A stretch of DNA of 13,233 bases. It comes from Pseudobdellovibrionaceae bacterium (GTDB lineage Bacteria > Bdellovibrionota > Bdellovibrionia > Bdellovibrionales > Bdellovibrionaceae). The stretch lies in NCBI GenBank assembly GCA_044359815.1, contig JBIKLL010000073.1, forward strand, positions 1-13,233, written 5' to 3'. This document shows, piece after piece, positions 1,562-13,115 of the stretch. How positions within the stretch are numbered: the first letter of the stretch is position 1; every line of letters begins with the position of its first letter. The notes beneath the pieces are model-generated. The model saw only the letters and a program-made list of their open reading frames with translations, searched no databases and had not been told where the DNA came from. The translations under genes and the position numbers were made by a program.

Positions 1562-2224
1562 ATGGAAAGACAAGTCGACTCACAGCTAGTGATCCTGAAG
1601 AGCCAAATCATGACAATGGCTGGTTATGTTGAAAAAGCTTTGGATGACAGTATCAATGCGTTGATACAAAGGACTGCTGATAAGTTTAAAAAAATTCATG
1701 AAACCGAGGAAAAAATCAACGAGGAGCATGTGCGTATCGACAATAACTGTGTCGCTTTTTTTGCCAGACAATCGCCGCTGGCTAAGGACTTGCGATGGAT
1801 TGTTTCGATCATCAAAATTAATTCTGATTTAGAGCGTATGGGTGATCAATGTGTGAATATCGCTCACACAGGGAAAGACTATCTGCAAAGAAATATTGTT
1901 TTTAAGCTGACTGAGATTTCTCAGATGAGCACTATCGTGCGCAAAATGGTTAAAGATGCCTTGGACAGTTTTGTAACGGAAAATCATGAATTGGCCAGAT
2001 CCGTTATCAAGTGCGATGACGAAGTTGACCATTTGAAAAACCAAGTATTTCGTGAGTTCACAAGCTACATACAGACTCACCCTCAGAATGTGGAAGCGGC
2101 TTTGGATTTGATTTTAATTGCCCGAAATCTGGAACGTCTGGGTGATCATGCGACAAATATTGCCGAAGACGTTATTTATGTGACGACGGGAAAGGACATT
2201 AGACATGGTGGAAAATTCTCGTGA
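1562..2224 (+). CDS. phoU: Phosphate signalling complex protein PhoU
   Basis: Two PhoU repeats: QSPLAKDLR...SDLERMGD and DDEVD...RNLERLGDHATNIAE. AAGGT lies upstream of the ATG. Confidence 0.96.
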   Translation: MERQVDSQLVILKSQIMTMAGYVEKALDDSINALIQRTADKFKKIHETEEKINEEHVRIDNNCVAFFARQSPLAKDLRWIVSIIKINSDLERMGDQCVNIAHTGKDYLQRNIVFKLTEISQMSTIVRKMVKDALDSFVTENHELARSVIKCDDEVDHLKNQVFREFTSYIQTHPQNVEAALDLILIARNLERLGDHATNIAEDVIYVTTGKDIRHGGKFS

Positions 2225-2921
2225 CTTTAAACAAGCAAAGATTCTGGTCGTTGAAGACGAACTGGAAATCAGAGAACTGATTTCATTGTTGCTGTTGCGA
2301 CAGGGGCACGCCGTTCAACATTGTGACAATGGCAAACAAGCTTTTGAATTATTGAAAACAAATCCATTTGATTTGGTTGTGTTGGATTGGATGTTGCCTC
2401 AGCTCAGTGGGATTGATTTTTTAAAGAGCGTCCAAATTGAAAAAATTAAAACTCCAGTGCTGATGGTAACAGCTAAAGCTGAGCCTCAGGATATTGTCCA
2501 GGGGCTGGAAAGCGGAGCAGATGATTACATCACAAAGCCCTTTCAACCCTCTGTTTTTGTAGCCAGGGTCAAGGCTTTGCTGAGGAGATCTCAAGGAAGC
2601 TCTGAAGCTGCAAAAAAATCTGATGAATTGGATTTTGGAAACTTGAAAATTAATTTGGCGTCTTACGAAGTCATTTGTTGTTCTGAAAAAATTCATCTAA
2701 CACCCTCTGAATTCAAAATTCTGAGCACCATGGCATTAAATCAAGGACGAGTGATGACTCGGGATCAATTGGTTGAAATTGTGCAAGGGGAAGGAATCAG
2801 TGTCACCGGCAGAACCATTGACACCCATGTTTTTGGACTCAGAAAAAAATTAAATGAATGTTCTGAATGGATTGAAACCATTCGGGGCGTTGGATATCGA
2901 ATCAGGACGGAAGCCAATTGA
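2205..2921 (+). CDS. phoB: OmpR/PhoB-family response regulator, PhoB-like
   Basis: Receiver domain ILVVEDE, LDWMLP (phosphoacceptor Asp), GADDYITKPF. Winged-helix domain LTPSEF, RTIDTHV, IETIRGVGY. AAGGA 8 nt before the ATG. Overlaps the phoU end and sits between phoU and phoR. Confidence 0.9.
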   Translation: MVENSRDFKQAKILVVEDELEIRELISLLLLRQGHAVQHCDNGKQAFELLKTNPFDLVVLDWMLPQLSGIDFLKSVQIEKIKTPVLMVTAKAEPQDIVQGLESGADDYITKPFQPSVFVARVKALLRRSQGSSEAAKKSDELDFGNLKINLASYEVICCSEKIHLTPSEFKILSTMALNQGRVMTRDQLVEIVQGEGISVTGRTIDTHVFGLRKKLNECSEWIETIRGVGYRIRTEAN

Positions 2922-4336
2922 TGGGGCCGTTTTTCCCATGGCGTTTGTTTTGGAAATCATTTTTAACACTCAGTCTGGTCAGCTCGATTTTGTTGGGTGG
3001 AATTGTTTTAGTGCAGACTATAGTTCACCAAGAGCAGTATCTTTTGGCATGGGTGTTTGGATCGGCTTTGTTTTCTCTGTTTTCGCTATGGTATGCCTTT
3101 AAAATCAGTGTGCCTTTGCGGCGAATAATCTTTAGGTCTATGCGAATGGCCTACAGAAGGCGGTTTGCTGATTTAACCGATGAAATCAGTGACACTGATT
3201 TAGTTGAAGACGATCCCGGAGAGTATTTTGAACTGGAGCGAGCTTTAACAAAGATTCGCAAGAAACTTAAAAAACGCCGTGATCAGTTGAGTGAAGAAAG
3301 AGATGAATCTAAAGCTTTGATGAGTGCTTTAACGGATGCCGTTGTCAGTGTTGATTTGCAGGACAGGGTTAGGTTTTACAATTCAAAATTTGCTATTCAG
3401 TTTTTACCAAATAAACAGCAGTCAGAATTAGTGTTCACTCAAATTTTTCGCGAACCTGAGCTTTTATTACTGATCAAAGAAGTGATTAAAAACCAACAAT
3501 CTAAAACCAGAATTTTGTTTTTAAAAAATCCAATCACGACGGCCTATAAATATTATTCCATAACCATTTCGCCTGTAGTTAGTGAGTCTGAGGCTCTTTT
3601 GTCAGGTGTGTTGCTGCTGTTTCATGATATTTCTGAAGTTAAGCGGGCTGAGCAGATCAGGATAGAATTTGTGGAAAACGCTTCTCATGAATTGCGGACT
3701 CCGCTGACCTCGATCAAGGGATATCTGGATGCATTGATGGATGATTTTAAGACTGGAAATGTCACTAAGGCATCAGAGTTTTTAGCCATCATTTCAAAAA
3801 GTGTAGACCGGCTTAGTTTGCTGGTTAACGACATGCTCAATTTAGCTCATTTAGATGCGGGGGCTGGGTTGCAGAAAGAGCTTATCGATCCCTCCATAGT
3901 TTCAGAACAAGTAATCCAAGAGTTGGCGACTTTAGCCAAAAGCAAAAAAATCCAGATCAATTTAAGCAACAAGGCTATGCATTTTTCAGCAGATTCCGCA
4001 AAAATCGAACAGGTATTGGAAAACCTGATTGGCAATGCGATCAAATATGTGCAAGAAGGCGGTGCCATCAATGTATCCTGGGAAATGGCAAATGATAGCA
4101 TTGCTCTGAAGGTTTCCGACAACGGGCCGGGAATTGAAGCAGAGCATCTGCCGAGATTGTTTGAAAGATTCTATCGGGTGGACAAAGGCAGGGCCCGGGA
4201 TGCGGGTGGCACTGGTTTGGGGTTAGCCATAGTTAAACACATAGTTCAAAGCCATGGAGGGGAAGTGGAAGTTGCTTCGACCATGGGCAAAGGATCTGAA
4301 TTTATTTGCTATTTTCCGAAAACTGCAGATCATTAA
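2921..4336 (+). CDS. phoR: Sensor histidine kinase, PhoR-like (two TM helices, PAS-like region, HisKA, HATPase)
   Basis: H box NASHELRTPLT, N box NLIGNAIKY, DNGPGI, LFERFYRVDKGRAR, GTGLGLAIVKH. Two hydrophobic N-terminal segments. TGATG stop/start overlap with phoB at 2919-2923. Confidence 0.9.
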   Translation: MGPFFPWRLFWKSFLTLSLVSSILLGGIVLVQTIVHQEQYLLAWVFGSALFSLFSLWYAFKISVPLRRIIFRSMRMAYRRRFADLTDEISDTDLVEDDPGEYFELERALTKIRKKLKKRRDQLSEERDESKALMSALTDAVVSVDLQDRVRFYNSKFAIQFLPNKQQSELVFTQIFREPELLLLIKEVIKNQQSKTRILFLKNPITTAYKYYSITISPVVSESEALLSGVLLLFHDISEVKRAEQIRIEFVENASHELRTPLTSIKGYLDALMDDFKTGNVTKASEFLAIISKSVDRLSLLVNDMLNLAHLDAGAGLQKELIDPSIVSEQVIQELATLAKSKKIQINLSNKAMHFSADSAKIEQVLENLIGNAIKYVQEGGAINVSWEMANDSIALKVSDNGPGIEAEHLPRLFERFYRVDKGRARDAGGTGLGLAIVKHIVQSHGGEVEVASTMGKGSEFICYFPKTADH

Positions 4337-4339
4337 AAA

Positions 4340-5590
4340 ATGGAATCAGCTAAAAATGAAGTCGTGATCGTCGGTGGTGGAATCATTGGATTGTCCTGTG
4401 CAGTGGCTGCGGCCAAAACCGGCGCCAAAGTCAAAGTTTTGGAAAAAGGCATAGTGGGTTTTGGATGTTCCTATGGAAATGCCGGATGGGTGACACCCTG
4501 TTTTGCGATGCCTTTACCCATGCCAGGATTATTGTTGAAATCCATTGGTTGGCTGCTTGATCCAAACAGTCCCTTATATATAAAACCTCAGTTCAGTTTA
4601 TTTATGGCATCTTGGATGACCAAGTTTCTGACCAGCATGAACGAAAAACAAGCCACCGCTGCCATTGAAGTTTTGGTCAAGATTTCGCAAACAACTTTGA
4701 ATGAATTTAAATTGCTTAATGAAAAATACCCCTCTGAATTTGGATTTGAACAAAAAGGTTTATTGATGTTGGCGCAAACTCCGGGGGGAGTTAATGCTGC
4801 TGTTGATGAGTTAAAGCGAACCGAACGTTATGGAGTCAGAGGAAAAATTTTAAAGCCAGATGATGTTCATCAGGCCGAACCAGCTTTGAAGGGTGATTTT
4901 GCAGGTGGAGTTCATTTCTTGGATGAAGCTCACCTGGAACCATTAAGTGCTGTCAGAATTTTGAAGAAAGAAGCTGAATCCCTAGGTGTAGAGGTCATCG
5001 AGCACTGTGAATTGTTGGATTTTGATTTTTCTAATAGCCGCTTGAAGGGGATTTACACTACTAAGGGGCGCATTGAGGCCGATCAGTTTGTGTTGGCGAT
5101 GGGGGCCTGGTCAAAAGAATTTGCTAAAAAGGTATCGCTAAGCATCCCTATTTTAGGTGGTAAGGGTTATTCTTTGATTTTTCCAAGATTAAAAAGACAA
5201 CCACAAATCCCGTTGATGATTTTAGAGAAGAAAATTGCAGTTACCCCCAGAGCCGATTCTATTCGTGTGGCAGGAACTTTGGAACTGGTGGATCAGGATT
5301 TTTCAGTCACTCCTACCAGAGTGAAAGCTATTTATAACGGAGCCTTAAGGCATTTGGATTTACCTGATCAGGCCAGGGTGACAGAGGTTTGGCGGGGATT
5401 GCGTCCTTGCACTTCGGACGGAGTTCCAATGATTGGCAGACACGAACAATATAACAATATAGTGTTTGCCTGTGGACATCAGATGCTGGGACTGCAAACA
5501 TCCCTGGGAACAGGGAAATTGGTCGCGGATATTTTGCAAAATAAAACTTCTGATTTAAACATGAAGATCTTAGATCCCAACCGGTTTTAA
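4340..5590 (+). CDS. FAD-dependent oxidoreductase, D-amino-acid dehydrogenase (DadA/DAO) family
   Basis: Rossmann motif IVGGGIIG, SYGNAG, GKGYS, WRGLRPCTSDGVPMIG, GHQMLG. The substrate cannot be determined from sequence. Confidence 0.88.
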   Translation: MESAKNEVVIVGGGIIGLSCAVAAAKTGAKVKVLEKGIVGFGCSYGNAGWVTPCFAMPLPMPGLLLKSIGWLLDPNSPLYIKPQFSLFMASWMTKFLTSMNEKQATAAIEVLVKISQTTLNEFKLLNEKYPSEFGFEQKGLLMLAQTPGGVNAAVDELKRTERYGVRGKILKPDDVHQAEPALKGDFAGGVHFLDEAHLEPLSAVRILKKEAESLGVEVIEHCELLDFDFSNSRLKGIYTTKGRIEADQFVLAMGAWSKEFAKKVSLSIPILGGKGYSLIFPRLKRQPQIPLMILEKKIAVTPRADSIRVAGTLELVDQDFSVTPTRVKAIYNGALRHLDLPDQARVTEVWRGLRPCTSDGVPMIGRHEQYNNIVFACGHQMLGLQTSLGTGKLVADILQNKTSDLNMKILDPNRF

Positions 5591-5609
5591 AATATTAACA
5601 AACAAGATA

Positions 5610-5769
5610 AAGCGTCGATCCAAAATTTAGATTCTAAACAATTAATTTTACTAAATAAGGTCACAGCTCCTGCTTCTCTGCTCGGGCCGAGCCCCCGCCG
5701 TCCAGGCTCCGCAGAGGACCTTATTTAGTAAAATTAATTGTTTAGAATTTAAATTTTGAATCGACGCTT
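5610..5769. repeat. Long inverted repeat: 53-bp arms around a 54-nt GC-rich core (REPIN/MITE-like)
   Basis: Arm 5610-5662 versus arm 5717-5769 is 51/53 complementary. After a 9x9 internal loop there is further in-register pairing of 5591-5600 with 5779-5788 (9/10). Confidence 0.96.
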
Positions 5770-5786
5770 GGAGTAGAATGTTAAAA

Positions 5787-6047
5787 TTATTTCTTTGTGA
5801 CTACGGATTGATACAGTTTTTCGGAGTCAGCGTCGGTTAATTCAAAAAACCATTTCGCCTGAGGATAGATCACAGCGGCAATGCCTTTTTCGCAAAATCC
5901 CAGGCAGCCAGAAGAATTGATTCTGACATCAGGCAATCCTTTGCATTTTTGCTTGAGCTCCTGTCTTAGAGCTTCGGAGTTTTTGTTTCCGCATTTACCG
6001 GGCTTATCAGGTCCATTGGTGCAAACAAACACATGTGTCTTGTACAT
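5787..6047 (-). CDS. Thioredoxin-like [2Fe-2S] ferredoxin
   Basis: HVFVCTN...KC...RINSSGCLGFC...VIYP...W gives the four-Cys pattern of Trx-like 2Fe-2S ferredoxins. CAGGA lies upstream of the ATG. Confidence 0.9.
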   Translation of the reverse strand: MYKTHVFVCTNGPDKPGKCGNKNSEALRQELKQKCKGLPDVRINSSGCLGFCEKGIAAVIYPQAKWFFELTDADSEKLYQSVVTKK

Positions 6048-6143
6048 AGTGTCCTGATCCTGGCACAGATAAGCTCAGAGCAAAATATACACTGCATGGC
6101 GAAACAACAGGAATATTCAGATTATTTCCGCTAGTTTCAATTC

Positions 6144-6995
6144 GTGACAGAAATTTTTGATCAACACTTTCAAAATATCTATCAAGATCGATGGCATTCC
6201 CTCAAATCAGCCTTGCAAAGCCAAGTCCCTACGGATTTTTGCTTTCTGAACCCATTTACCAATGACTATCAAAATCTGAGTCAGCTTTTGCAGTCAAAGC
6301 CTGCTGATCGTATCACTAGGAATGAAAATCTGCTGAACGAATATTTTATCGATAAAGCCAGTGTGGCGCCCATTTTGAATTTGGAGCCTTATCTAAGAAA
6401 TTCTGCAAATTTGTCGATTTTGGATATGTGTGCAGCCCCTGGCGGAAAGGGGTTGCTGCTAAGTTCATTTATCAAAAATGATGGACAGATGATTTTCAAC
6501 GAACCCTCCATCAAACGGCGTGAATCCCTGAAAAAGGTGATTCAAAACTACATTCCCAGAAATATCCGTGAGCGAGTTCGTATCAGTGGGATAGATGGAT
6601 CTAAGTTTTTCAAGCAACATAATACTTTTGATGTGATTCTGGCCGATGTCCCTTGTTCCGGGGAAAGACATATTATTGAAAACAAAACCGAAATGCAAAA
6701 GTGGTCAGTGAAAAGGACACAAAAATTAGCCATTCAACAGTACGCAATCTTGTCGGCAGCATCCATGGCCTGTAAACCCGGGGGATTTATTTTGTATTCG
6801 ACTTGTTCTATTTCCCCCAATGAAAATGACCAAGTGATCGAAAAATTATTTGATCGGCATTCAGAACAGTTCAAAATATTAATGAGCCCTGAGATTTTTC
6901 AGGGACAAGAAAATTCCCAGTGGGGCAGTCAGTTGTTTCCAGATGTGGCACAAGCTGGCCCGATTTATTGGGCGCTTATTCAAAAATTAAACTAA
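6144..6995 (+). CDS. RsmB/RsmF/NOP2-family RNA m5C methyltransferase (compact)
   Basis: SAM motif LDMCAAPGGKG, motif IV ADVPCSGE and motif VI YSTCS, so both catalytic Cys are present. GTG start. Confidence 0.92.
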   Translation: MTEIFDQHFQNIYQDRWHSLKSALQSQVPTDFCFLNPFTNDYQNLSQLLQSKPADRITRNENLLNEYFIDKASVAPILNLEPYLRNSANLSILDMCAAPGGKGLLLSSFIKNDGQMIFNEPSIKRRESLKKVIQNYIPRNIRERVRISGIDGSKFFKQHNTFDVILADVPCSGERHIIENKTEMQKWSVKRTQKLAIQQYAILSAASMACKPGGFILYSTCSISPNENDQVIEKLFDRHSEQFKILMSPEIFQGQENSQWGSQLFPDVAQAGPIYWALIQKLN

Positions 6996-7013
6996 TCAGA
7001 AAATAATCAAAAT

Positions 7014-8660
7014 CTAAATAGAGACGATTTGATTAAAGACTAGTGCTGATGGTTTGGAATCCTTGAAATCCACACAAAAATATCCAACACGTTCAAACTG
7101 ATATCTGAGTTCTGGCTTAGCATTCAATAAGCCTTTTTCCAGTTTGGCATTTTTAATAATTCGTAAAGAATTTGGATTAAGATTTTTCTTGAAGTCCGAT
7201 CCCTCGGGCACATTTTCGGGATCCGCTACTGAAAAAAGTCTTCCATACATTCGGACTTCAGCAGTGATGCAGTCACTGGCAGAAACCCAATGAATGATGC
7301 CTTTGATTTTTCTGCCATCAGCTGGGGGTTTCCCGCCCAATGTAATGGGATCATAAGAGCATCTGAGTTCCTTGATTTTACCAGAGGGATCTTTCACGAT
7401 CTGCTCGCATTTTACAACATAGGCGTTGCGCAGACGGACCTCGCCACCTGGTTTTAATCTAAAAAAATCAGCTGATGGGTTTTCCATAAAATCAGAGGAC
7501 TCAATAAAAAGTTCTTTGGTAAATGGATTCGTGCGTTTACCTAATTCTGGTTTTTTAGGATGTACGGCTGGATGCATTTCTTCAACACGACCTTCGGGCC
7601 AATTTTCAATCACCAGTTTTATCGGATCGATAATCGCCATGGCTCTGTGACTGATCTCGTCCAGATTTTCACGAGCACAGATTTCCAAAATATCATAATC
7701 GATAATGCTTTCAGCCTTGGAAACTCCAATTCGTTTTGCAAACAGTCTGATTGATTCCGGCGTGTAGCCCCGTCGGCGAATCCCAGAAATGGTTGGCATT
7801 CTGGGATCATCCCAACCATTCACATAACCTTCCTTTACCAATTGCAAAAGCTTACGTTTGCTCATCACCAAATAGGTCATGTTCATTCTGGCAAATTCAT
7901 ACTGCCTGGGCTTTGCAGGCACTGGCAGATTTTCAATGCACCAATCATAAAAAGGCCTGTGATCTTGAAATTCCAGTGTGCATATCGAATGAGTGATATG
8001 TTCGATAGCATCAGACAATGGATGAGCGTAGTCGTACATCGGATAAATGTTCCAGCTGTTGCCGGTTCTGTGATGTTTGACTTTGCGAATTCTGTACAGC
8101 AATGGATCCCTCATATTCATATTGGGGGATTTCATGTCAATTTTTGCACGCAATACATGTTCGCCTTCATTAAAGGCTCCAGCTTTCATTTTTCTGAATA
8201 AATCCAAATTTTCTTCAGCGCTTCTGTCTCTGTAGGGACTGTCCTTACCTGGAGTATTAAAATCACCTCGGTAGGTTCTCAGATCTTCTTCACTCAGACT
8301 GCAAACATAGGCTTTATTATTTTTAATTAAATATTCGGCCCAATCATAAAGCTGCTCAAAATAATCTGAAGCAAAATACAGATGTTCCTTCCAATCAAAA
8401 CCCAGCCATTTGACATCGGCTTTTATTGATTCAACGTATTCAACCTCTTCGGTTTCTGGATTGGTGTCGTCAAATCTTAAATGGCAACGGCCATTGTAGT
8501 CTTGGGCCAAGCCAAAATTTAGACAAATCGATTTTGCATGTCCTAAATGCAGGTACCCATTGGGTTCCGGTGGGAAACGAGTGACGACTTTGCCACCATG
8601 TTTCCCTGATTGAATGTCTTTTTCGATAATTTGCTTTAGAAAATTTGCGGCCTCTGTCAT
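7014..8660 (-). CDS. glnS: Glutamine--tRNA ligase
   Basis: TRFPPEPNGYLHLGHAKS (HIGH motif), RFDDTNP, YPMYDYAH, VMSKRKL (KMSKS motif), WDDPRMPT, YQFERVGYF. Confidence 0.98.
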   Translation of the reverse strand: MTEAANFLKQIIEKDIQSGKHGGKVVTRFPPEPNGYLHLGHAKSICLNFGLAQDYNGRCHLRFDDTNPETEEVEYVESIKADVKWLGFDWKEHLYFASDYFEQLYDWAEYLIKNNKAYVCSLSEEDLRTYRGDFNTPGKDSPYRDRSAEENLDLFRKMKAGAFNEGEHVLRAKIDMKSPNMNMRDPLLYRIRKVKHHRTGNSWNIYPMYDYAHPLSDAIEHITHSICTLEFQDHRPFYDWCIENLPVPAKPRQYEFARMNMTYLVMSKRKLLQLVKEGYVNGWDDPRMPTISGIRRRGYTPESIRLFAKRIGVSKAESIIDYDILEICARENLDEISHRAMAIIDPIKLVIENWPEGRVEEMHPAVHPKKPELGKRTNPFTKELFIESSDFMENPSADFFRLKPGGEVRLRNAYVVKCEQIVKDPSGKIKELRCSYDPITLGGKPPADGRKIKGIIHWVSASDCITAEVRMYGRLFSVADPENVPEGSDFKKNLNPNSLRIIKNAKLEKGLLNAKPELRYQFERVGYFCVDFKDSKPSALVFNQIVSI

Positions 8661-8706
8661 GCCGTTCAGGATAGCACAGACAGAAACCGCACTTCAATAT
8701 TTGGGT

Positions 8707-11349
8707 CTATCTAAATACGCCGTCACAAGTCATACCGCTGACAAGCTTTGGTGCAGTCAGGGTAGGATCGCTATCTCCGCTCTTTGTGACAATGACTTTC
8801 CCGCCTGAAAAAGTCACCTTGGCCAAACGCTCTTGGGAATTCTGGAAAAAGAACAAACTTAGATTCTGAGAAACCTTTAAAAGCTCACGCTCTAAGCTTC
8901 TGACAGAAAGCTCATTTTCAGTGCCAGAATTGTCCTTGTTACCAAATCCAATACCAGGTCCCGTTGAATTTTGACTGCGAACCAAGCTTTCCACGTACTG
9001 AATTAAATCATTCACATTCACATCAATCGAACGCCCTGTTCGTTCAAACTCTTCGGCAATTTTTTGCCATTTGTTTTTCAAGATATCGTGTACGGCTTGT
9101 TTGTTGGGTGATTCCAGTGGTGTGATCGTGGAAAATCGATCCAACAAATAGCGATTCAAGCCATCTGCTAAAGCCTCACGTTCAAATTCTGCGAAACTGT
9201 GTTCTCGGTCCGCCAATGATTGAGCTGCATTGGTAGCTGCTATAAAAATGACCTTGGATCCATCTATTTCAGTGCTGGAATTGTGCATATCAATCTTTGA
9301 CAGTGAAGCTTCAAATTTACCAGAATCCATCAAATCCAAAAGGGATTGCTGCACAGCTGGGTGAGCTTTTTCGATTTCATCAAACAAAACCACAGAAAAC
9401 GGATTGGCTCTGATAATTAACCCCAATTTTGATTTGAATGCGGACACATCGGATGGATGGGCGTACTGAGACATCATTATCCGATTATATTGAAAGCCCA
9501 ATCCTTTGGCGATTGTTTGGCTGAATACAGTTTTACCAACACCTCGGCGCCCATAGATCAATATCCCTGTGGGTTTTGATTCTTCCTTAACCAGTTGTTT
9601 GAAAAAATGCTCGCCCAAAGCCAACTGGATAACATCTTTTGTTTTTTCCAAACCTACGATTTCAGAGTCTACCTTTTGTCTGAGGACTTTTAGGTTTTCA
9701 GAAATCTTTTCTGGAACGTACTTGTTCAAGTCAAATCCATACAATTGCGAAGCAAACTTTCTGACCAGTTCTTCAGTCAACACGTTGACGTTATCAACCA
9801 CCATGCTGGCAAAAACGTACTCTGCCAAACGCAAAGATTTTCTGGGATTGGAGCCGATCGGATCAAAACGACTGGCTGTCTGTGCTATGGATTTTAAGCT
9901 TTCAGCAGGGACTTCAAAGCTGCGATCGCCATAATGTCTTCCTCTAAAAGTATCAATAATACTGACTGTTTTTTCAAGATTTGGCTCTGCAATTTTAATT
10001 TTGATCGGGAATCTTTCAGTGAAAGCTTGGTCTCCTGAAAAGTATTTATCCCATTCATTGTCAGTGGTGGTCCCAATGATTTTAATATTTCCACGTGCCA
10101 GGTCTTCCTTAAGCATTTGAAAAAAGTCATTGCGATTATCACGGTGAGCTCCGGCGCCCACAAGGGTGTGCATTTCATCGATTAACAAGGTCACCGGTAC
10201 AATGCCAGAAAGCATTTTTAGGGCTCGGATTTTCATTTCAAACAATCCAACCAATCCCACATCAGCTGCGATGTCACCGTTAGCGAGCTTAATATAGAGA
10301 CGGTTTTGCAATTCCTTGGGACCTTTACCCTCAACAATGTATGAAACCAAAACATCAGCAAAATAGGTTTTTCCTGTACCTGGTCTGCCCAGAACAGCCA
10401 CGCTGCCACCGTTTTTCATCACGAGAGCTCTTAAAGATTTTTGAATTTCTTCATTTAAATTTTGGTAGTCCTCGGGAAATGCTGTGCCTCTGCTGACAAA
10501 TTTAAATTGTCTGTGCAAAAAATCTAACAACGTGATTTGCCCTTTGTTGCCATCAGGTAATGTGATGTTAGAAATCTTTGGGTCGCTCAGCAGATTGTCG
10601 GCACTGTATTTAGGAGAAGTTTTTGACATCAACCTGGTTGGTTGCAGTTCTTCGCCATCATTCAGCTTAACAATCAGCTTATAACCTTTTTCGATTGCTT
10701 TAACTCTTATTGGTTGCTTGGCATTGTCGTCCAAATCCAAAATGAAGTTGTTCATTCGGTAGAATTTATTGTGATAATACAAATAGGTGCCTACCACAGC
10801 GTTTTCGACATCACGAATAGTCAATACGTTGGGGACACCGTTTCTGGCTTCGGGATAAAAGGATCTGAAATCTGCTTTTGAACTGACATTTAATAATTCA
10901 GGAACCGTGATGCTTTGGTGCTCTACCATATCGCCATCAACCCTGTGAAAAATCAGCTGATCGCCAACAATAAAAAACCCAATATTTGTGTATTCGTTTT
11001 CTATCACTCGATAGCTTTTTTTAGATGGAATCGGCGTCGATCTGGCGGCCGCAGGTTTTGAAACCAATTTGACCTCGCCAACATAAGCCTCTTCGCCACT
11101 GCGACTGCTAATAATTAGCTCAGTTGCGTTATTGCGAACTTCAACAGTTGTGTAGCCTGCTGAACTGTCAAATTGAATAGTGATATCCTGTGGCGAAACA
11201 ATTGGGTCGTTTGCCTGAGCTGGTAAAAACATGAATGGCACCATTGCGAGTGCCAAAATGGATTTTAATTGTCTTATCCGTTTTGTAATTGAGTTGGTGG
11301 TTTCAAAATATGATGACCAAACCGCTAAGCTTTCTGACAATTTCAACAT
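8707..11349 (-). CDS. Divergent double-AAA+ ClpA/ClpB-like ATPase with predicted N-terminal signal peptide and unrecognised N-domain
   Basis: D1: GRPGTGKT (residue 321), LLIDEMHTLVGAG, IIGTTT, FTERF. D2: GRRGVGKT (residue 600), VVLFDEIEKAHP, ATN, LLDRF, SVR. No ClpB M-domain. GAGGGGG Shine-Dalgarno before ATG 11349. Confidence 0.88.
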   Translation of the reverse strand: MLKLSESLAVWSSYFETTNSITKRIRQLKSILALAMVPFMFLPAQANDPIVSPQDITIQFDSSAGYTTVEVRNNATELIISSRSGEEAYVGEVKLVSKPAAARSTPIPSKKSYRVIENEYTNIGFFIVGDQLIFHRVDGDMVEHQSITVPELLNVSSKADFRSFYPEARNGVPNVLTIRDVENAVVGTYLYYHNKFYRMNNFILDLDDNAKQPIRVKAIEKGYKLIVKLNDGEELQPTRLMSKTSPKYSADNLLSDPKISNITLPDGNKGQITLLDFLHRQFKFVSRGTAFPEDYQNLNEEIQKSLRALVMKNGGSVAVLGRPGTGKTYFADVLVSYIVEGKGPKELQNRLYIKLANGDIAADVGLVGLFEMKIRALKMLSGIVPVTLLIDEMHTLVGAGAHRDNRNDFFQMLKEDLARGNIKIIGTTTDNEWDKYFSGDQAFTERFPIKIKIAEPNLEKTVSIIDTFRGRHYGDRSFEVPAESLKSIAQTASRFDPIGSNPRKSLRLAEYVFASMVVDNVNVLTEELVRKFASQLYGFDLNKYVPEKISENLKVLRQKVDSEIVGLEKTKDVIQLALGEHFFKQLVKEESKPTGILIYGRRGVGKTVFSQTIAKGLGFQYNRIMMSQYAHPSDVSAFKSKLGLIIRANPFSVVLFDEIEKAHPAVQQSLLDLMDSGKFEASLSKIDMHNSSTEIDGSKVIFIAATNAAQSLADREHSFAEFEREALADGLNRYLLDRFSTITPLESPNKQAVHDILKNKWQKIAEEFERTGRSIDVNVNDLIQYVESLVRSQNSTGPGIGFGNKDNSGTENELSVRSLERELLKVSQNLSLFFFQNSQERLAKVTFSGGKVIVTKSGDSDPTLTAPKLVSGMTCDGVFR

Positions 11350-11395
11350 CGTTCCCCCTCTGAATTCGATTTGTAATTTGTGAGTCTTTATAAGG

Positions 11396-11527: not shown

Positions 11528-11558
11528 AAAAAACGCTGCTTAATTAAGCGGCTTTTTT
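11528..11558 (-). terminator. Possible intrinsic terminator overlapping the stop of the 92-aa gene
   Basis: The minus strand reads GCCGCTT-AATT-AAGCAGC followed by GTTTTTT. One mismatch and a weak stem. Confidence 0.4.
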
Positions 11559-11822
11559 CTTTGCTAACAAAATGCGCTTTGAAGCTTTGTATTCTTTTAA
11601 GGACATAAAACCGTAGGTGGTTTTTTTAAACATGATTTCGATTTCTTCGCGGATGTCGCCTTCCAGGATGTCTAACATCTTTTGGGGGATGTTGCCTTTT
11701 TTCATCAGACAGGCAATGTAATCACCAGCGACTTCGTAGGTAAAGTCCTTCAAAACAAATTTTTCGGGATCTGCTTCGTTTAAGTATTGGCTGAAAATAT
11801 CAAACAGTTCGTCTCGTTCCAT
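11544..11822 (-). CDS. Hypothetical protein, 92 aa (acidic helical body, basic tail)
   Basis: ATG start and protein-like composition. Fills the gap between the AAA+ gene and NFACT. No family recognised. Confidence 0.75.
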   Translation of the reverse strand: MERDELFDIFSQYLNEADPEKFVLKDFTYEVAGDYIACLMKKGNIPQKMLDILEGDIREEIEIMFKKTTYGFMSLKEYKASKRILLAKKKAA

Positions 11823-11879
11823 ACATTGAATTTTTCGGAGGAATCACTAAAATGGATGACGGTGAAAGGGGATAATATT

Positions 11880-13115
11880 TTGCAATCATTGAATTTTTGG
11901 CAGATTTTGTCTTATTCTGATTGGCTGCATCAGACTTTGGTCGGTGGGCAGCTTCAGGATTGTTGGACTGACGGGAAACTGATTGTCCTAGAATTATACA
12001 AATCCCAAACAAATTATTTAGTACTGAATCCCAATATTTCATTACCCAGCTGTGCTGTTTTTGATCAAAAACCACCCATTAAGAAAATCAAAAAACCTTT
12101 AACTTTGTTTTTAAATTCAAGGGGTAAAAATTTAAGGCTTCAGAAGGTATTTGTGCTGGAGCCAGAAGGCCGGGTTATAAATTTTGAGTTTGCTGACAGT
12201 TTATTGATTAAATTTATCATGGTTCCTCGGCAGTCCAATATTATTGTTCTGCACCAGGAAAATCAGATCAGTTGGGAAAAGCCCACAGAGCTTGCGGCTC
12301 ACACAGCACCGCCACAAGAGTTTTCTGCCGTTGATTGGAATGAATACTGTGTAGGTTGTTTTCAAGATTATTTTGGCAAATCAGTTTCAAAATCAATCGA
12401 CAATAAGCCTGTCCCTGACAACACAGCTAAAATTAATAACCTGATTCAGAAAAAGAAAAAAGCTTTGCAAGCCATGAGTTCTGTGGATTTTGATGCGCAA
12501 ATAAAAAAATTTGCTGAAATGGGCGAGCAAATCAAAATATCAGGCAGTAGTGATTCAGAGCTGTATCAGAAAAAGTTATCTAAGGGCGAAAATATCAAGA
12601 TTGCCTTTCAGAAAGTCAAAGACCTTAAGCGCAAAAAACAAGGGGCCATGGAGCGGATGAATCTGCTCAAAACAGAGATACATAATTTAGAATCGGGCAG
12701 GCAGGATCCTGTCAGGGCTGAAAATTCGCTATTAAAATCAGCCAATATTAAAGGACGGACGCTGAGGCTGAATGACCTGATCACTATAGAATATGGAAAG
12801 TCTGGCGGGGATAATTTAAAATTACTGCGAAAAGCTTCTGCTTGGCATATTTGGCTGCACCTTAGAGACTATCCGGGCAGTCATGCCATAGTCAGCTTTG
12901 CAAAAAACGTTAAGGTTTCTGCTGATGATCTGCATAAAGCTGCGCTTTGGTTGATTGAACAAACAATCGAAAAAAAATCCACTGTGACAGGATTAAAATA
13001 CGATGTCTTGGCTGTAGAGTGTCGATTTGTAAAGCCCATCAAAGGCGATAAGCTGGGCAGAGTCACTTACCAAAATGAAAAAGTATTTTCAGTTGCGTCA
13101 AGGCCTAGAAAATAA
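11880..13115 (+). CDS. Compact NFACT (RqcH/FbpA-like) protein with NFACT-R/DUF814 domain
   Basis: N-terminal L..GGQLQ...LEL pattern and RQSNII. C-terminal YGKSGGDNLKL, WLHLRDYPGSHAIV, VKPIKGDKLGRVTY. Start set at TTG 11880 (AAAGGGG 8 nt upstream); ATG 11856 is an alternative. The track start 11787 overlaps the divergent gene. Confidence 0.82.
   Translation: MQSLNFWQILSYSDWLHQTLVGGQLQDCWTDGKLIVLELYKSQTNYLVLNPNISLPSCAVFDQKPPIKKIKKPLTLFLNSRGKNLRLQKVFVLEPEGRVINFEFADSLLIKFIMVPRQSNIIVLHQENQISWEKPTELAAHTAPPQEFSAVDWNEYCVGCFQDYFGKSVSKSIDNKPVPDNTAKINNLIQKKKKALQAMSSVDFDAQIKKFAEMGEQIKISGSSDSELYQKKLSKGENIKIAFQKVKDLKRKKQGAMERMNLLKTEIHNLESGRQDPVRAENSLLKSANIKGRTLRLNDLITIEYGKSGGDNLKLLRKASAWHIWLHLRDYPGSHAIVSFAKNVKVSADDLHKAALWLIEQTIEKKSTVTGLKYDVLAVECRFVKPIKGDKLGRVTYQNEKVFSVASRPRK

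Follow-up and report, generated by a model that had tools for sequence, protein, structure and literature searches.

The window analysed here, meaning the whole 13,233-nt stretch of contig JBIKLL010000073.1 from a Pseudobdellovibrionaceae bacterium, carries on its minus strand an open reading frame (ORF; 8707-11349, stop codon position included) that encodes a Clp-like ATPase of 880 amino acids, designated P0001. An earlier note on this DNA had proposed that the protein is exported and delivered to another cell. The start codon, ATG at 11349, has a strong ribosome-binding site, the Shine-Dalgarno sequence GAGGGGG, which was read directly at 11354-11360 with a spacing of 4 nt. It puts the start upstream of the hydrophobic stretch; a start downstream of it was what the earlier note had named as speaking against export. 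Because no ATG, GTG or TTG codon between M1 and the hydrophobic core keeps the basic n-region, the 22-residue extension ahead of the signal (residues 1-22; 11284-11349, minus strand), predicted as a low-confidence helix, is probably a real part of the protein. It is identical in contigs of other sequencing runs. The whole P0001 stretch, start region included, is covered piecewise by contigs of four further lake-water runs with 0 indels and 0 joints; no RNA runs were among the runs listed for it. The single nucleotide polymorphism (SNP) seen across these contigs lies at window position 11222 in one lake-water run (G>T on the plus strand) and changes P43 to Q in the signal c-region, at -4 from the predicted cut.

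Residues 23-46 (11212-11283, minus strand) have the features of a Sec-type signal. By inspection and by heuristic, they comprise a basic n-region (KRIRQLK), an uncharged run of 18 residues for the h- and c-regions and a small-x-small site (AQA), with a predicted cut at A46|N47, after which the chain continues with ND. This is how the earlier note had described the segment, including its 22-residue extension, and re-reading agrees with it. No later transmembrane (TM)-like segment was found in P0001, the maximum 19-residue hydropathy past the signal being 1.42. As judged from the sequence, export of P0001 via the Sec pathway is well supported, and the mature protein is predicted to be soluble, with about 834 amino acids.

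Residues 47-300 (10450-11211, minus strand), which replace Clp_N, comprise an all-beta N-domain and a small conserved alpha/beta linker in which L274 is invariant. The AlphaFold2 (AF2) model of this region has an all-beta fold (pLDDT 82.8, pTM 0.71), in keeping with the earlier statement that about 230 residues after the signal are beta-rich and unlike Clp-N. Scanned alone, the region had no Pfam or NCBIfam match at E≤10, and Foldseek against the PDB returned no match for the N-domain at E≤1e-3. P0001 as a whole has 31 Pfam matches, and the 25 of these that were shown do not include Clp_N (PF02861). The best VIA match of the N-domain was to partial WD40 or propeller blades, with a Z of 6.7 that does not exceed a background of 7-8.

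Two AAA+ rings follow. Ring D1 (residues 301-540; 9730-10449, minus strand) contains Walker A at 321-328 (GRPGTGKT), Walker B at D391/E392, sensor-1 at T429 and an arginine finger at R446. A linker helix leads into ring D2 (together residues 541-836; 8842-9729, minus strand), with Walker A at 600-607 (GRRGVGKT), Walker B at D657/E658, sensor-1 at N707, an arginine finger at R738 and sensor-2 at R817. The motifs as read and the Pfam matches (AAA, 73 bits for a cut-off of 21.2; AAA_2, 60 bits for a cut-off of 27) agree on the two AAA+ modules with intact Walker A and B motifs that had been claimed. The chain closes with a family-specific C-terminal extension of 44 residues (837-880; 8710-8841, minus strand), predicted as a beta hairpin and a flexible tail that ends in C875-D-G-V-F-R; C875 is the sole cysteine of P0001. 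In the full-length AF2 model (pLDDT 87.9), the signal is a low-confidence helix, residues 43-53 are disordered, the core is Clp-like and the tail is flexible. Its best structure matches in the PDB are ClpC, ClpB and ClpA protomers.

The same genome encodes an ordinary ClpA, an ordinary ClpB and one ClpP elsewhere. When P0001 was aligned to its own ClpA and ClpB, both rings were seen to retain Walker A, Walker B, sensor-1 and the arginine finger, and D2 also sensor-2, whereas Clp_N, the M-domain insertion of ClpB, the ClpP-docking loop and the D2 GYVG pore loop are missing. P0001 has a 12-residue gap where both ClpA and ClpB have 'LVGAPPGYVGFEEGG', and no IGx tripeptide at the site of IGI in ClpA. 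The tripeptide IGF at 799-801 was considered as a ClpP loop and rejected, since it aligns with GYD/GFD just before sensor-2 of ClpA and ClpB. The D1 pore loop of P0001 reads G-L-V-G (365-368) where ClpA has K-F-R-G. The NCBIfam equivalogs all score far under their cut-offs, namely ClpA (TIGR02639, 172 of 993 bits), ClpV/TssH (TIGR03345, 147 of 885 bits) and ClpB (TIGR03346, 140 of 1232 bits). P0001 thus has the two AAA+ modules of Class I Clp/Hsp100 proteins but neither their Clp_N nor their D2 GYVG loop, and for ClpV/TssH the window also holds no genes of a type VI secretion system (T6SS). The best solved relative by sequence is E. coli ClpA (PDB 1ksf, 6uqe and 6w1z; 124 bits, P0001 299-709 against ClpA 192-608). 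Both proteins have two AAA+ rings without an M-domain and share the D1 Walker, sensor and arginine-finger motifs and the D2 Walker B sequence DEIEKAH. P0001 differs from ClpA in its signal peptide, its all-beta N-domain in place of Clp_N, the absence of the two loops and its C-terminal extension with a conserved cysteine.

An exhaustive homologue search of 1.84 billion representatives returned 358 proteins at E≤1e-30, of which the best 150 were examined. The closest homologue, P0002, is 67% identical to P0001 from residue 54 on; its first 28 residues are not alignable with P0001 and form a classic signal without the extension. All of the next 15 relatives (P0004-P0018) have signal-like N-termini ending in a small-x-small site. 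The earlier note had suggested a phylogeny to see whether signal-bearing Clp paralogues group together, and had pointed out that homologues without the N-terminal segment would speak against export. A FastTree phylogeny of the AAA+ core was built from 144 rows, made up of the representatives of at least 600 amino acids with a Walker A motif, the query and its own ClpA and ClpB (P0003, a truncated copy of P0001, was left out). One branch, with a support of 100, separates 113 rows from the other 31, which are mostly canonical Clp proteins and include both ClpA and ClpB of the P0001 genome as well as the rows whose N-terminus is of the Clp_N type. Of the 113 clade rows, 99 are flagged by the signal heuristic, versus 2 of the other 31, and the signal-bearing Clp paralogues were thus found to group in one branch, with relatives that do carry signal-like N-termini.

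The N-termini could be analysed in 97 of the 113 clade rows, and these detailed features were weighted above the heuristic because the heuristic is unspecific. The uncharged run has a median of 18 residues and is preceded within 6 residues by K or R in 89 of the 97 rows. The first 8 mature residues hold on average 1.49 D+E versus 0.79 K+R, and a later segment with a 19-residue hydropathy of at least 1.8 was found in one row. The signal is conserved across the clade in its physico-chemistry, not in its sequence. Since positive charge lies before the core, acidic residues follow the predicted cut and no further TM segment is seen, an N-out anchor with a cytoplasmic ATPase is argued against. The N-terminal signal therefore appears to be a family trait and not a chance occurrence, and the clade can be described as a large, undescribed group of Clp/Hsp100-type two-ring AAA+ ATPases with predicted export signals.

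The cysteine content of the clade points in the same direction. The median is 1.61 cysteines per 1000 amino acids in the 113 clade rows versus 9.25 in the 31 canonical rows, which is about six-fold lower (Mann-Whitney p=5e-11, a value that is overstated, the rows being related). The own ClpA has 10 cysteines and P0001 has one. Proteins of oxidising compartments are expected to avoid stray cysteines, and the depletion supports, as an independent sign, a life outside the cytoplasm. A cysteine lies within the last 20 residues of 90 of the 113 clade rows, in the motif C-[ED]-x-[LAVI]-[LF], and is the only cysteine of the mature protein in 45; among 74 aligned members, the C-terminal cysteine is present in 66. 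A lone conserved cysteine in a flexible tail suggests a possible intermolecular disulfide or a tether.

The catalytic residues are also kept. Each of 11 catalytic positions in the two rings is retained in 66-74 of the 74 aligned members, and this conservation in both rings implies that ATP turnover would be under selection in the clade. The pore loops have fared otherwise. In D1, the loop [KR]-[YFW]-x-G has an invariant glycine and an aromatic residue (Y, F or W) in 51 of the 74 members. Because P0001 has lost both this aromatic residue and the D2 pore loop, a simple unfoldase or threading activity is doubtful for it, and the loss of aromatic pore loops fits a putative remodeller that acts through its N-domain. 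Like P0001, the clade also lacks Clp_N, the M-domain and the ClpP-docking loop.

To our knowledge, all bacterial Clp/Hsp100 machines studied so far are cytoplasmic. Textbooks describe the space beyond the inner membrane as free of ATP, and an exported family raises the question of the ATP source outside the cytoplasm. In at least 113 sequence clusters, the residues for hydrolysis have been kept, export signals are present, cysteines are depleted and the parts that link Clp proteins to cytoplasmic partners have been dropped. This combination therefore implies selection for ATP turnover outside the cytoplasm of the producer and, in predators living inside prey, it points to the use of prey ATP. 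The novelty lies in the new architecture built around a Clp/Hsp100 core and, it appears, in a new compartment. A 1986 paper reportedly deals with an ATP transport system in B. bacteriovorus, as its title reads in the reference lists of PMC13689555 and PMC4834554; going by that title, the premise that no ATP is found outside the cytoplasm may be weaker in the Bdellovibrio lineage.

Taken as a whole, these features are best explained by a Sec-exported Clp/Hsp100-type ATPase that would work outside the cytoplasm on prey-derived material with prey ATP, an explanation to which we give about an even chance. Its well-supported part is that a soluble two-ring ATPase, competent for catalysis, is predicted to be exported; action on prey with prey ATP is what we infer beyond it. 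The export that the earlier note had put forward is supported by the clade-wide signal-like N-termini, by the charge pattern without a further TM segment and by the cysteine depletion. We consider work on prey proteins with prey ATP most likely because the ATPase residues are under selection, the link to ClpP is gone and the carriers, as predators, bathe in prey contents. The mature protein would form a Clp-like hexamer outside the cytoplasm of the producer, possibly held together or tethered via the C-terminal cysteine. ATP would be hydrolysed there, being available only during contact with prey contents, in the bdelloplast or from leaky prey cytoplasm. Prey-derived proteins or complexes would then be remodelled or disassembled via the variable N-domain and the D1 ring, and the ATPase would work alone rather than as the unfoldase partner of a ClpP-type protease. 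Such proteins would be candidates for two questions, the dismantling of prey macromolecules and the action of predator proteins across the prey inner membrane.

Several observations weigh against this explanation. The signal call comes from inspection and a home-made heuristic of low specificity, by which 709 of the 1566 ORFs of at least 250 amino acids in the genome are flagged, membrane proteins included. The counts of residues at -3 and -1 are partly inherent in how the cleavage site was chosen. Fourteen of the 113 clade rows are not flagged, although by eye most of these look N-terminally truncated, and the tree was made with FastTree only, from the best 150 of 358 matches to P0001. The 22-residue extension is unusual, and P0002 does not have it. 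In D1, Leu replaces the aromatic residue in P0001, and Leu or Val is found there in P0001 and its nearest kin, while the D2 GYVG pore loop is deleted clade-wide. No conserved gene neighbour of the family was found in nine other contexts (ten with the window). With P0001 as the query, none of 40 close relatives matched at E≤1e-60; the gene occurs patchily, and the lineage can do without its role. The final location after Sec export, the formation of a hexamer and the access to ATP are matters of inference only.

Some of these observations also bear on whether the protein leaves the cytoplasm at all. If the hydrophobic run were an uncleaved anchor, or the start were mis-called, P0001 would be a membrane-tethered Clp paralogue with its rings in the cytoplasm of the producer. 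The extension, odd for a signal peptide, would fit this, as would the uncharged run of at least 24 residues found in 12 of the 97 relatives, and the heuristic, which flags 45% of long ORFs, is blind to the difference between signal and anchor. However, positive charge before and acidic residues after the run predict an N-in, C-out orientation, the median run of 18 residues, c-region included, is short for a TM helix, and small-x-small sites close the run throughout the clade. With the roughly six-fold depletion of cysteine relative to cytoplasmic relatives and a Shine-Dalgarno sequence that sets the start upstream, a cytoplasmic location is very unlikely. An artefact of assembly or annotation, in which an unrelated signal-bearing 5' end was fused to a Clp gene, is conceivable in a 125-contig assembly, but P0002, 15 further relatives and the hits in 12 genomes share the same architecture, and the contigs of four other runs cover the stretch piecewise without indels or joints, so that we give this idea hardly any credence. 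An exported protein that is not driven by energy is another matter. It could be an ATP-independent holdase or scaffold in the predator periplasm, or a sensor of prey-derived ATP by nucleotide binding; the cysteine depletion and the signal place the protein outside, ATP is generally considered absent from the periplasm, and P0001 has lost the canonical substrate-gripping loops. This is nonetheless unlikely, because 66-74 of the 74 members retain, across both rings, the residues specific to hydrolysis (the Walker B glutamate, both arginine fingers, sensor-1 and sensor-2), and such retention would be difficult to account for if ATP turnover were not under selection.

Two eukaryotic systems offer points of comparison with the exported ATPase that we favour. 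HSP101 of the Plasmodium PTEX complex (PDB 6e10 and 6e11) is, like P0001, a Clp/Hsp100 two-ring ATPase, and it is among the solved relatives, with 106 bits over D1. HSP101 has a signal peptide and works outside the cytosol of its producer, in a compartment bordering the cytoplasm of another cell; its partners are EXP2 and PTEX150. By analogy, P0001 could be a translocon motor, the exported hexamer docking by its N-domain or C-terminal tail on a pore in the prey inner membrane, where it would push predator hydrolases into the prey cytoplasm or pull prey proteins out while ATP leaks through the pore. Such a role would suit an Hsp100-type ATPase that bears a signal and comes from an organism living within the envelope of another cell, the D1 loop [KR]-[YFW]-x-G with its invariant glycine persists in 51 of 74 members, and the flexible conserved C-terminal tail is a possible docking peptide. 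HSP101, however, is a eukaryotic, ClpB-like protein that has an M-domain and whose pore loops are intact, whereas the clade has no D2 pore loop and P0001 no aromatic D1 loop. HSP101 also has defined partners, whereas no conserved pore-forming or membrane partner gene adjoins the P0001 family in the ten contexts, although partners could be encoded elsewhere. With the role and signal of HSP101 taken here from general knowledge, the chance of such a motor is slim. A broader proposal is that Bdellovibrio-type predators export a whole radiation of Hsp100-like hexameric motors run on prey ATP outside their own cytoplasm. These would either be free unfoldases, readying prey proteins to be digested, or dock on the prey inner membrane in the manner of PTEX and move proteins across it. 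In this full form the proposal is improbable; if true, it would give the first demonstrated case of a bacterial AAA+ machine at work beyond the cytoplasm, one that could belong to the unknown route of predator enzymes into the prey cytoplasm. Torsins are the other comparison. They are signal-bearing AAA+ proteins of the ER lumen, an oxidising compartment; they are related to Clp D2, have no aromatic pore loops and have a functionally important cysteine near the C-terminus. They have a single ring and no arginine finger of their own, whereas the P0001 family has kept two rings and both arginine fingers. A weak Pfam Torsin match to P0001 (residues 547-646, E=3e-4) is under the cut-off.

The distribution of the family was examined with a 14-row subfamily profile. 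At least 12 of 401 sampled genomes of Bdellovibrionota matched at E≤1e-80, a count that includes the P0001 genome and is a lower bound because scoring was limited to the top two candidates of each genome; signal-like N-termini are present in all 12 hits. In Pseudomonadota, the phylum of an Altererythrobacter genome, none of 401 genomes matched at 1e-75. A 74-row profile was rejected for counting, as the own ClpA scores 402 bits with it and the family is not separated from ClpA. With these queries, the family was not found in a genus of the same taxonomic family that is well sampled, with complete genomes of 3.0-4.0 Mb, and this absence may explain why it has not been studied. Database names of the homologues are only "MoxR-like ATPase" or "RarA", in clusters of 1-10 sequences, and ESM Atlas returned generic AAA clusters only. 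Full-text literature searches and a term search of PMC11656739 found no description of exported bacterial Clp/Hsp100 ATPases. A protein search with the family alignment gave 4 family proteins among 8000 candidates, and one with residues 1-300 gave 2.

Further signal-bearing Clp-like paralogues of other subfamilies were seen in relatives of the same family or order (loci L137-L140 and L108, in genomes G028, G040, G007 and G038). They have 658-1006 amino acids, no GYVG and 0-3 cysteines, and in G028 and G040 they are paired as genes of about 785 and about 905 amino acids. At locus L099 (G336:C5), two family paralogues of 885 and 888 amino acids (5447-8104 and 12603-15269) lie 4.5 kb apart on the same strand, with several signal-bearing ORFs of unknown function between them. 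The P0001 genome itself has a 318-amino-acid ORF on another contig (C33:16415-17371, minus strand) with a signal-like N-terminus and the Walker A sequence GDPGSGKT, which may be another exported P-loop protein.

In the window, the P0001 gene stands alone among housekeeping genes, without clpP, clpS or T6SS genes in the 13,233 nt, and the annotation of its neighbours agrees with the earlier note on this point. The T6SS sheath protein VipB/TssC was not found in the genome (91% completeness), with a control that matched in E. coli. The TLC ATP/ADP translocase (PF03219) had no genome match either, but its control was also without any match, so that this search is uninformative. The glutaminyl-tRNA synthetase (GlnRS) gene (7014-8660) lies 46 nt downstream on the same strand, and it is possibly co-transcribed with the P0001 gene, the gap having no reported terminator-like site. 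Farther along, beyond GlnRS, are genes for an RsmB-like methylase, a DAO oxidoreductase, PhoU/PhoB/PhoR and Ppx. In a genome of the same order, a distant family member (L105, G301:C2, 4220-11345) is likewise found within a few kb of PhoU-PhoB-PhoR, on their downstream side; this resembles the arrangement in the window (1562-11349) and may be a remnant of synteny. Another family member adjoins ClpP-ClpX-Lon on the opposite strand.

In metagenome contigs, a search with P0001 itself found no related locus, and a back-translated FDPIGxNPRK pattern returned a single one, L145, where a signal-bearing homologue (P0153) lies upstream of an M20 peptidase, a neighbour seen at no other locus. Patterns from the family alignment were also tried for related loci in genome contigs and rejected as too general, as they returned canonical Clp genes only. 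On the other side of the P0001 gene, a 92-amino-acid ORF without a Pfam match (11544-11822, minus strand) precedes it and overlaps by 36 nt, 5' end to 5' end, a 442-amino-acid ORF with only a weak NFACT_N match (11787-13115, plus strand), for which the called TTG start is probably too far upstream. Between the 92-amino-acid ORF and the P0001 gene lies a hairpin followed by a T-run (11535-11552).

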